DNA from: Halorussus marinus
GTDB taxonomy: Archaea; Halobacteriota; Halobacteria; Halobacteriales; Haladaptataceae
Assembly: GCF_004765795.1 (NCBI RefSeq)
Contig: NZ_SBIV01000002.1
Coordinates: forward strand, 248,001-312,000
Reading direction: 5' to 3'
Length of the DNA: 64,000 nt
The position numbers and the translations under genes are program-made. Below are positions 31,906 to 35,415 of the stretch, in pieces (the stretch's first letter is position 1; every line of letters begins with the position of its first letter). The notes beneath the pieces were generated by a model. The model was not told where the DNA came from, searched no databases, and saw only the letters and a list, made by a program, of their open reading frames with translations.

Positions 31906-32436
31906 TCAGACGGTGAACTCGTAGAGGTCGTCGCCGACGTGGTGGATCGACTCGACGACCTTCCCGGAGTCGCCGACCATCTCCTCGCCGTCGGTCTTCG
32001 CCCGACCCACCGCCAGCACCTTGCCGTGAGACTCCTCGGCGATCGCGACGAGGTCGCCGGGTTCGATGTCCGGGTCGGCCTCCACGATGCCGGGCCGCAT
32101 CACGTCGGCGCCGTCGCTGACGAACGACACCGCGCCCGCGTCGACCGTGACGACGTGGGTCTCGGGCGGGTAGTCGTTCGCGCCGCGGACGGTCAGGAAG
32201 GGTTCGTCGTCTCGCGGACTCTGTCCGCTCGACTCTTCGGCGGAGCCTTGCTCCGCGCTCTCGACGTACAGGACGGCGGGCTCGCCGTCGACAAGCACGA
32301 GGTCGAACGCCGAATCCTCTAGCTCCACGAGTTCGTAGCTGTCGGCGTCGAGGTCGACGCCGAGGTTCGCCGCCAGTTCGTCTTCGACTTCCCGCACCTC
32401 GTCGCTCCGGAGGTGGTGACGAGACTTGACCTGCAT
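31906..32436 (-). CDS. PUA-domain RNA-binding protein (Tma20/MCT-1-like)
   Basis: VTVDAGAVSFVSDGADVMRPGI, HHVGDDLY; carries an apparent internal insertion. Confidence 0.9.
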   Translation of the reverse strand: MQVKSRHHLRSDEVREVEDELAANLGVDLDADSYELVELEDSAFDLVLVDGEPAVLYVESAEQGSAEESSGQSPRDDEPFLTVRGANDYPPETHVVTVDAGAVSFVSDGADVMRPGIVEADPDIEPGDLVAIAEESHGKVLAVGRAKTDGEEMVGDSGKVVESIHHVGDDLYEFTV

Positions 32437-34301: not shown

Positions 34302-34421
34302 GTACCCGAACGTCCGACGGTCTCGCGCATAATGGTTTCGGGGTTCGTCGAGGGAAAGTAACTCTCCTCCGAGTAAGTGTGGAGGGGAAAGCCTAACCGC
34401 GGCCCCGCCCACAGGGCGACC

Positions 34422-35360
34422 ATGAGCCTCCGCGACGCGGCCGAAACCGCGCTCACGCAGTGTCTCGCGCTCGAGGAGACCGAATCCTGTTGTATCGTGA
34501 CCGACGACGAGCGCCGCCCGATCGGCGAGGCGCTCTACGAGGTCGCCAGCCAGATCAGTTCGGACGCGACCGTCGTCCGGTACCCACCGGGCGACTCTCA
34601 CGGCGCCGAACCGCCCGAACCCGTCGCGGCCGCGATGGCGGGGGCCGACGTGTTCCTCGCGCCGACCACCAAGAGCCTGAGCCACACCCGCGCCCGCGGC
34701 GACGCGAACGACGCCGGCGCGCGCGGGGCGACCCTGCCGGGCATCACCGAGGACGTGTTCACGACGGGGCTGGACGCCGACTACGAGGCCATCGCCGCCC
34801 ACTGCGAGGCCGTGCTCGAACAGGTCGCGGACGCCGACGAGATCCGGGTCACCTCGCCGCAGGGAACCGACATCACCTTCGAGCCCGGCGACCGCGAGTG
34901 GCACGACGACACCGGCATCGTCCACGCCGACGGCGAGTTCTCGAATCTCCCGGCGGGCGAGGTGTTCGTGAGCCCCGAGGACGCTGAGGGCACCTACGTC
35001 GTCGACGGGACGATGATGCCCCACGGCCTGCTCGACGAGGGCCAACACCTCGAATTCGAGGTCGAGGACGGCTACGTCACCGACATCTCGGACGACGAGA
35101 TCCGCGGGCAGGTCGAGGACGCCGCCGAGGACGTCGGCGACGCGGCGTACAACCTCGCCGAACTCGGTATCGGCACCAACGTCGCGGTCACCGAACTGGT
35201 CGGGTCGGTCCTGCTCGACGAGAAGGCCGGCGGCACCGTCCACGTCGCGATCGGCGACGACGCCGGCATCGGCGGCGACACCGACGCCCCGATCCACTTC
35301 GACGGCATCCTCAGGGAGCCGACCGTGTACGCCGACGGGGAGGTCGTAGATCTCCCATGA
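34422..35360 (+). CDS. Aminopeptidase (M29/thermophilic metalloprotease-like)
   Basis: [33 protein letters not shown]. Confidence 0.9.
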
Positions 35361-35415
35361 ATCGAGCGGTGGAACCGCGAGACGGGGAGGTCGTAGACCC
35401 GCCCCAGCCCGAGTG

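Follow-up and report, generated by a model that had tools for sequence, protein, structure and literature searches.

A gene encoding a PUA-domain RNA-binding protein in Halorussus marinus carries, in frame, 51 nucleotides that fold as two tandem hairpins. To judge from comparison with other sequences, the insert is very probably one diverged member of a mobile, order-wide family of double-hairpin repeats lying in unrelated genes. A dispersed family of in-frame repeats, with a spread perhaps guided by base pairing, is, we believe with considerable confidence, the best explanation overall of the observations described below. In-frame palindromic repeats (RPE) are textbook matter for Rickettsia, and REPs are known to lie inside genes in some bacteria. 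In the open-access full texts searched, no account was found of in-frame hairpin repeats in haloarchaea, nor, in the same literature, of such in-frame or intragenic palindromic elements in archaea generally.

The insert and its host gene

The window, i.e. the whole 64-kb stretch of DNA that was analyzed, contains at 31906..32436 on the minus strand a gene for a 176-aa PUA-domain RNA-binding protein, MCT-1/Tma20-like and of the PRK14560 type. The PUA domain (PF01472) occupies residues 95-167 of the protein (69.4 bits against a cut-off of 24.8). The full-length protein matches NF011154, a 159-position NCBIfam profile, with 269.1 bits (cut-off 224), and it matches TIGR03684 with 149.2 bits (cut-off 120.6). 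The protein thus combines a full-length match above the cut-off with a PUA domain and belongs among the archaeal PUA-domain RNA-binding proteins.

Most close homologues have 159 aa. The 17 extra residues of the H. marinus protein sit between ...LYVE and DEPFLTV (the peptide around the insert reads ...VLYVES-AEQGSAEESSGQSPRD-DEPFLTV), and the difference between 176 and 159 aa therefore puts the insert at 17 codons, or 51 nt. It lies at 32209..32259 on the minus strand, is read in frame as the 17-aa SAEQGSAEESSGQSPRD, and scores 45.4 bits with covariance model R2 (described below). A first-pass annotation of the window, which put the insert at 48 nt and 16 codons, was one codon short when set against the 159-aa orthologues. 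It also described two tandem triloop hairpins, and these lie exactly as it described them, on the coding (minus) strand: hairpin H1, GCGGAGC-AAG-GCTCCGC, at 32240..32256, with a 7-bp stem and a 3-nt loop, and hairpin H2, GTC-GA-GCGGAC-AGA-GTCCGC-GA-GAC, at 32209..32233, with a tandem G.A/A.G internal loop. Its expectation of a clean gap of about 16-18 aa relative to orthologues was realized as a clean gap of 17 aa.

Relatives of the host protein in the PDB (PH0734, Ta1423, human MCT-1, and APE0525) can be aligned on either side of the insert but not through it. An AlphaFold2 model of the protein, made from a 42-row alignment, is mediocre (mean pLDDT 65), and residues 54-79 are predicted with pLDDT below 50 and without secondary structure. 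So modeled, the insert region fits a floppy loop, and the 51 bases are likely read as a short, floppy loop of protein. We take the insert to be translated, not an intron, because copies of it elsewhere show reading-frame bias. A bulge-helix-bulge intron was considered and rejected by eye, as the 76-nt fold has no such motif.

Taken alone, the pair of hairpins is only marginally beyond chance. The RNA fold of the 76 nt has a predicted energy of -31.4 kcal/mol (z -2.46), and 3 of 200 shuffled sequences were equally stable. The 565-kb contig contains 490 perfect triloop hairpins whose stems are 6 bp or longer, compared with about 425 in dinucleotide shuffles. At this frequency, a window should therefore contain a few cases of two such hairpins lying within 50 nt. 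When the peptides of 24 inserts were recoded synonymously, the folds were equally stable (mean z -0.09), because stem pairs use codon positions 1 and 2; the fold did not survive shuffling of the order of codons, with a mean z of -1.5 (-3.9 for the copy in the window). Since the palindrome is written in codon positions 1 and 2, it is inseparable from the peptide within one sequence, and synonymous recoding, which revealed no excess stability, is the wrong null here. Counts of generic patterns of foot, stem, and loop were dominated by chance in this genome of 67% GC. The hairpins gain their significance because of comparison with other sequences.

Variation of the loop in PUA orthologues

The loop between the conserved Y and PF of the PUA proteins is a hot spot for length variation, ranging from 4 to 22 residues in 184 distinct genes. 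Of 20 genomes in the genus, 4 have the long form, as do many in a second family, apparently Haloarculaceae to judge from named records and proteins (the named long-form matches include Halosimplex, Halomicrobium, Halapricum, and Haloarcula). Each long form folds as two triloop hairpins, with stem sequences that differ. Variants of H1 at this locus include GAGGCGC/GCGCCTC, GAGGCGG/CCGCCTC, GAGGGAC/GTCCCTC, GAGGGCC/GGCCCTC, and GAGGCCC/GGGCCTC, those of H2 include GCGGC/GCCGC and GTGGC/GCCAC, and the peptide varies along with the stems (EAQSAS, EAGAAS, EGPRPS, EGQRPS, EAQGAS).

When 26 orthologous copies were aligned with MAFFT, 84.7% of the cells proved to be paired; shifting the 3' partner by 1-3 columns lowered this to 31-48%. 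In 12 cells both sides of a pair have changed, compared with 2.1 in shuffles (0/500). The identity of the element at this locus is 63.3%, against 63.8% at third positions, so that it diverges at a rate like that of synonymous sites. Thus, at the PUA locus, pairing has been kept while the sequence drifts. Decay is also evident: one genome has VGDDETE where a congener with 94% identity has the 21-residue form, and losses can be nearly precise. The shorter PUA loops look like internally deleted copies.

A dispersed family of double hairpins

A covariance model built from 21 PUA-gene inserts only (R1) and run on five whole genomes produced dozens of matches, several of them outscoring the PUA copies. 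Six copies in other genes of H. marinus scored 38.0-42.8 bits, above the copy in the window (36.8). Another model (R2), for which 55 copies were used, found 11 copies in the same genome at E<1e-3, plus a solo H2 in the S9 peptidase gene; E-values come from a short calibration, and related sequences are not independent. One of the 11 copies is in frame +1 of a BtpA gene. The other ten are in frame 0 of genes supported by Pfam. By Pfam, the unrelated proteins with copies in this genome are Peptidase_S9, LysX/RimK, chorismate synthase, Dna2-like nuclease-helicase, DUF5783, SAICAR synthetase (PurC), GlcD-like FAD-linked oxidase, TrpB (PALP), and MoeA. In the common frame, the copies in this genome read SAAWNAAEQSSGDEPRD, SEAASAPEEPSGDAAEPRD, SEAQGPSEDSSGDEPRE, GEARRASGQSSGQRPRD, SAERSSADDSSGRSPRE, and SEARRASDDRAGSDDPRD, among others. 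The proposal made from the window alone, of a haloarchaeal family of miniature palindromic elements that colonize coding sequence and add loops to proteins, is supported. As with RPE, the same repeat is found in frame in several unrelated genes (the ten copies), and the site is polymorphic among close relatives.

Because stem sequences vary from copy to copy, the family escapes searches based on sequence only. Looking in the H. marinus genome for exact or near-exact instances of H2 (up to 3 mismatches) returned only the copy in the window, and blastn-short with the 80-nt region returned nothing beyond 14-nt chance words. In the genome search that the first-pass annotation recommended, neither the exact 25-mer nor blastn turned up another copy, but the structure-aware model found 11 at E<1e-3. 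The annotation's suggestion to look for peptides like SSG[QR]SPR[DE] was of no help, as S[SA]G..PR[DE] had 13 matches in the six-frame translation and the reversed motif 10, which does not discriminate. Six copies submitted to Rfam had no match.

The consensus of the family is (A/G)GCGAG-GCGC-GAA-GCGC-CTCG-GAnnn-GCGAG-CGG(C/T)-GAA-(G/A)CCG-CGAG-C. Near-consensus copies have the form (A/G)GCGAGGCGC-GAA-GCGCCTCGGA(n0-3)GCGAGCGG(T/C)-GAA-(A/G)CCGCGAGC, translated as SEARSAS..ASGE(T/A)AS, and the mean identity among twelve such copies, each taken from a different gene and genome, is 87%. The 66 copies examined range from 43 to 63 nt, with one tandem pair of 109 nt. Set against the family consensus GAGGCGC-GAA-GCGCCTC, the H1 of the window copy stays in register, and two of its pairs show compensatory changes; the frame of the same copy's H2, TCGAGCGG...CCGCGAGA with the GA/GA mismatch, is seen again in other copies of the same genome. 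H. marinus has only diverged copies of the SSGxxPR[DE] type and no matches to the ASGE[AT]AS type, though its congeners have such copies, and expansions of the family are therefore lineage-specific.

Over the 55 dispersed copies, H1 is 97.1% paired and has double-sided changes at 5 of its 7 pairs. Compensated cells number 47 (8.1 in shuffles), in an alignment that was fitted to the model and so favors pairing. Stem covariation, one of the checks proposed at the outset, is thus seen in compensatory changes among both the 26 orthologous and the 55 dispersed copies. The pairs of H1 are nearly all Watson-Crick (362, with 2 G.T and 3 A.C), and the lack of a wobble excess argues against an RNA fold. 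Loops are inverted in some copies relative to others (e.g., GAA/TTC and GTA/TAC).

The window contains a second, weaker copy at 35337..35383 on the plus strand (24.1 bits with R2, E 0.008, filters off). Its H1 encodes the final residues of a Peptidase_M29-like gene (34377..35360; Pfam PF02073), a TGA stop lies between its hairpins, and its H2 (TCGAGCGGT-GGA-ACCGCGAGAC) is within the 52-nt spacer ahead of the next ORF. Apart from the matches of 45.4 and 24.1 bits, R2 run over the 64-kb window with all filters off gave nothing above 20 bits, so an R2 score of more than 35 bits stands well clear of the noise.

Reading frame and distribution

The placement of copies was considered in 66 instances, namely the top matches of six genomes and the near-consensus matches of twelve more. 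Forty have open flanks and lie in sense frame 0, and 6 others have a left flank in frame 0 with a stop nearby. At least 46 of the 66 are thus in coding frame 0, a count drawn from top-scoring matches only, in which weaker intergenic members may be under-represented. At least 4 of the remaining copies have open frames and right flanks in frame 0. None of the 66 is clearly antisense. The few copies in frame +1 include those of the BtpA gene and of a gene in two families that, by its motif, we take to be TrpC. Some copies are intergenic, including a composite of about 150 nt with five hairpins that is repeated five times in one congener (G006); the H. marinus genome has no counterpart to this composite by nhmmer (E<1e-3).

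Read by eye, the consensus is open in all six frames. Frame 0 is rich in Ser, Glu, Ala, and Gly, four other frames are rich in Arg, and one antisense frame is rich in Leu, Ala, and Ser and is non-acidic. Being Arg-rich or non-acidic, the other five frames would likely be selected against in the acidic proteins of halophiles. The frame bias would be explicable by selection in acidic proteomes together with an in-frame GGC-GAG target. It could also reflect selection alone.

With R2 at E<=1e-4, 127 of 151 Halobacteriales genomes (at least 90% complete) were matched, with 1-29 matches per carrier and at least about 915 in total, no more than 40 candidates being scored in each genome. A sample taken across the phylum gave matches in 12 of 13 genomes of the same order, compared with 0 of 88 from other orders. 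The consensus was found in 7 of 72,556 records of PLSDB, all of them haloarchaeal replicons; six of the matches are inside annotated CDSs, and the seventh record carries no annotation. A phage collection contained no match to the element.

Empty sites, targets, and junctions

At sites where congeners carry copies, the H. marinus genome has clean gaps of 42-51 nt. Clean empty sites were found for 8 host genes, with nine sites examined, drawn from top-scoring copies only. By peptide motif, we take the hosts to be PurF, TrpA, AhpC-like, CarB, LarC-like, E2 acyltransferase, and one more. A tree of the PUA locus, computed from an alignment of 2,489 columns around the gene after excision of the insert, does not place the genus's four alleles that bear the insert in a single clade; one of the four is sister to an empty allele (support 1.0).

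GGCGAG ends exactly at the insertion point in 4 of the 9 empty sites (carB, E2, LarC-like, and the PUA gene of Haloarcula), and others have GAG at that point. The frequency of GGCGAG in the genome is 0.0015 per position per strand, so that, even with 7 nt of slack, P is about 1e-6. The hexamer is also the element's own first six nucleotides, and GCGAG is found again where H2 begins and at the element's 3' end. Junctions vary: GAG is on both sides of a 45-nt core in carB, the target hexamer doubles as the start of the element in E2, and a 3' AGC is common to site and element in the LarC-like gene. With junctions variable and flanks diverged, no target-site duplication or microhomology can be fixed. 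Such variable, homology-bearing junctions, few as the sites are and diverged as they are, incline us towards copy-in guided by pairing over a precise transposase.

At three orthologous sites, compared between different genera, the element is better conserved than what surrounds it. In carB, 46 of 46 nucleotides of the element are identical, against 118 of 150 and 129 of 150 in the flanks (28 of 50 at third positions). The AhpC-like site has 44/46 to 47/49 in the element against 86-89% in the flanks, and the TrpA site has 39-43 of 46 against 68-79%. The difference could be due to constraint at the level of nucleotides, to repeated insertion of a conserved master into one permissive site, or to transfer by recombination. 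The PUA locus is the opposite of these three in conservation of sequence, yet its stems have been retained.

Discussion

By what means might such an element move? The first-pass annotation suggested an HUH (Y1/RAYT) nuclease. By this account, a Y1 transposase (RAYT, or the TnpA of IS200/IS605) would move the copies in trans, as non-autonomous derivatives; it would recognize their two hairpins when the DNA is single-stranded and insert them on the 3' side of a short, fixed target. In elements of the IS200/IS605 type, hairpins near the ends take the place of inverted terminal repeats, and insertion occurs beside a specific short sequence. In favor of this account, the haloarchaeal element has a pair of subterminal hairpins but lacks terminal inverted repeats, it shows a bias towards the target GGCGAG (4 of 9 sites) with GCGAG at its own end, and its stems are strictly Watson-Crick, as expected of a DNA fold; also, two genomes with near-consensus copies (G480 and G371) have Y1 genes. 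However, the element is far shorter than IS200/IS605, and its dependence on TnpA is not supported. The Y1 transposase domain (PF01797) was not found in the H. marinus genome (99.97% complete), nor in G005 or G133, nor in 7 of 14 sampled congeners, so that 8 of 15 genomes of the genus lack it, all of them carriers of the element, G009 (29 copies) and G011 (21) among them. In the sample of 151 genomes, it was also not found in G004 (20 copies), G008 (16), G001, G003, and G007. The domain is present in 89 of the 151 genomes and the element in 127, and 15 of the 20 element-free genomes listed have the domain, so the recommended look at co-occurrence with TnpA(Y1)/RAYT discloses no association. Four Y1 (IS200/IS605) loci have ends unlike the element, with no R2 match above noise (best 18.7 bits). 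All told, mobilization by an HUH enzyme appears improbable to us. A master copy tied to a DUF559 nuclease (PF04480) was sought and rejected: it was not found in G000, G013, G006, or G371, and G480 had one weak match of 24.1 bits. Two pairs of inverted copies flanking genes were rejected as well, as they enclose ordinary genes (DUF2064, DUF5785, FAD-binding, and ferredoxin-like ORFs). Amongst the candidates considered (Y1, DUF559, and the genes between inverted copies), no mobilizing gene was found.

The element may instead be a functional signal in nucleic acid (protein-binding, a hairpin of DNA in replication or repair, or a structure in mRNA) that is under selection, the peptide being a by-product. 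To judge from the sequences, this is possible, though we are inclined to doubt it. Compensatory changes keep the pairing at the PUA locus while the sequence drifts at the synonymous rate; the element is 100% (carB), 87-93% (TrpA), and 96% (AhpC-like) conserved, against 68-89% for the flanking coding DNA; and intergenic members and arrays of hairpins exist, with one copy in the window straddling a stop codon. Nonetheless, the host genes are heterogeneous, and the element is patchy even within the genus (4 of 20 at the PUA site), with near-precise losses. Furthermore, Rfam has no match, and the lack of a G.U excess speaks against an RNA fold. Template switching, which can create and maintain hairpins (PMC8794818, PMC8604942, as described in the portions available), offers an upkeep of perfect stems that is not adaptive and that yields double changes of a compensatory appearance, so that palindrome-correcting events could keep the stems without selection (PMC8794818, available portion). 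Such a process accounts for maintenance at one locus. It does not account for one 46-nt sequence in dozens of unrelated genes. A further notion, which does without any mobile family, is that slippage during replication or template switching produced the insert on the spot, in an acidic surface loop prone to indels. The continuous range of loop lengths in orthologues (4-22 residues), the internal near-repeats, the abundance of short hairpins in the H. marinus genome, and the finding that the folding of the native DNA is no greater than its peptide would lead one to predict would all suit a local origin. Near-identical sequences of 46-49 nt in unrelated genes and genomes would not, nor would the copies in other genes found by a model trained on the PUA locus alone, and we give a local origin hardly any credence.

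We return, then, to a dispersed family that spreads by pairing. The element may be copied and pasted, its GCGAG ends pairing with GAG or GGCGAG at the target, a mechanism that we put forward tentatively, judging its chances to be somewhat short of even. Copying would probably take place on single-stranded DNA, by some enzyme or repair route, and the copy-in itself may be template switching or end joining at GCGAG. The copies that last would be chiefly those inserted in frame into surface loops that tolerate them. In the PUA protein, the copy would make a disordered loop of the N-terminal domain, probably near-neutral in its effect. Its hairpins, like those of other copies, may be kept by selection on the fold of the DNA or by replication errors that correct palindromes. 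One can go further and imagine an order-wide, selfish mini-element without a transposase of its own, whose GCGAG ends pair with GGCGAG (Gly-Glu) codons, writing acidic loops of 15-17 residues into housekeeping proteins, and whose hairpins are selected as a signal at the level of DNA. So specific a proposal is doubtful.

The nearest parallels are bacterial. The RPE are treated as the paradigm of in-frame insertion in the available part of a 2024 review of MITEs (PMC10969869). In the portions available of that review and of Di Nocera et al. 2013 (PMC3733652), the RPE are dispersed palindromic repeats, in frame within many unrelated functional genes, adding peptide segments that appear compatible with folding and encoding no transposase, all as in the haloarchaeal family. 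They differ, in a comparison by description only, in their length of about 100-150 bp and in belonging to an intracellular bacterium. The haloarchaeal element, in contrast, has a length of 45-57 nt, consists of two tandem triloop hairpins, resides in archaea, where 127 of 151 sampled genomes of one order have it, and in most copies examined uses one reading frame. The REPs (superfamilies GTAG and CGTC) described in the accessible text of PMC3733652 are also short, GC-rich hairpin units, single, in doublets, or in arrays, some of them translated inside genes, with intergenic members near gene ends. The same text places REPs inside bacterial genes and equates RPE-4/6 with CGTC REPs; the string "halo" occurs in it 0 times and "archaea" twice. 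Unlike REPs, the haloarchaeal element has a consensus, (A/G)GCGAGGCGCGAAGCGCCTCGGA...GCGAGCGGTGAAACCGCGAGC, without a GTAG or CGTC tag, it is not associated with Y1/RAYT, and most of its high-scoring copies are intragenic.

Within archaea, the MITEs covered in the available part of PMC10969869 are only those of Sulfolobus, Halobacterium, Haloquadratum, and a few others, and an inventory from Halobacterium (PMC7002104) comprises, in its available part, only canonical elements with terminal inverted repeats. These haloarchaeal MITEs (the MITEHsal families and ISH2) are like the present element in being non-autonomous mobile DNA of the same organisms. They differ in being hundreds of bp long, with terminal inverted repeats homologous to those of an IS and target duplications of 5-7 bp (PMC7002104, available part). 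The present element has no evident terminal inverted repeats and has instead a direct repeat of GCGAG at both ends, and no parent IS was found for it. The family is an archaeal analogue of RPE and of intragenic REPs, with an architecture of its own and no link to Y1 transposases.

A very small element, present in most sampled Halobacteriales genomes and residing in core genes, shapes variation in protein length that is now annotated as ordinary coding sequence, and it marks natural sites in haloarchaeal enzymes that tolerate insertion. Its copies also serve as presence/absence markers for the population genetics of haloarchaea. The family raises the question of how a 46-nt pair of hairpins is copied without a Y1 transposase and why its stems stay paired. 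If it is truly a selfish mini-element, then it would be the archaeal counterpart of REP and RPE, with a mechanism of its own.

A second copy in the window

A second, weaker copy of the double-hairpin family lies at positions 35337-35383 of the window, on the forward strand, where it straddles the 3' end of a Peptidase_M29-like gene. Its first hairpin (H1) supplies the codons for the final residues of the protein, GEVVDLP, the TGA stop falls between the two hairpins, and the second hairpin (H2), which is well formed, occupies part of the 52-nt spacer ahead of the next open reading frame.

Variant forms and shared sites

In some copies, the loop of H1 is reverse-complemented, with TTC in place of GAA or TAC in place of GTA (extracted loci L253, L262, L267, L268, and L272, as compared with L144 and L238), so that the encoded peptide becomes EALRAS rather than EARSAS. 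Template switching inside a palindrome is expected to produce this kind of "spacer inversion". In another variant, a gene of the sampled haloarchaeal genome G480 (L250, C23:78846-79134) contains two tandem copies of a 54-nt unit and encodes GEVERSETSDGGSGEAAD twice.

A gene assigned by motif to TrpC carries a copy at the identical site in two families (L247 in G480 and L269 in genome G005). In both, H1 is read in another frame, giving KARRLVRR or EARRLARR, and H2 retains the usual Ser-Ser-Gly reading. A near-consensus copy also lies in a gene assigned by motif to UvrC in genome G079 (L288). At the same UvrC-like site, the genome of H. marinus (C3:203932-204294) has a different insert of 25 residues, PEATARRRADGGATAADPGVAGPRV, possibly an old copy that has decayed or shifted frame.

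Genome G006 contains five near-identical occurrences (L282-L286) of an intergenic composite of about 150 nt, consisting of five GC-rich hairpins and located at about positions 930-1130 of each locus. One hairpin is of the H2 type, GCGAGCGGC-GAA-GCCGCGAGC; a run of T precedes the composite and GAGAAAAAAGGT follows it. An arrangement resembling it is found in G480 (L255), and a search of the H. marinus genome by nhmmer (E<1e-3) gave no counterpart.

Age and distribution of copies

In G005, four hits to the covariance model on contig C4 (20-55 kb) reappear on contig C7 (82-116 kb), and their scores and spacing are identical. Given that identity, either about 35 kb of this genome is duplicated or the assembly is redundant here.

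The highest-scoring copy in the H. marinus genome reaches 56 bits, and the whole genome has no near-consensus copy of the type marked by the peptide ASGE[AT]AS, whereas copies scoring 66-69 bits are present in nine congeners. The difference suggests recent lineage-specific bursts that either bypassed H. marinus or have since been lost from it.
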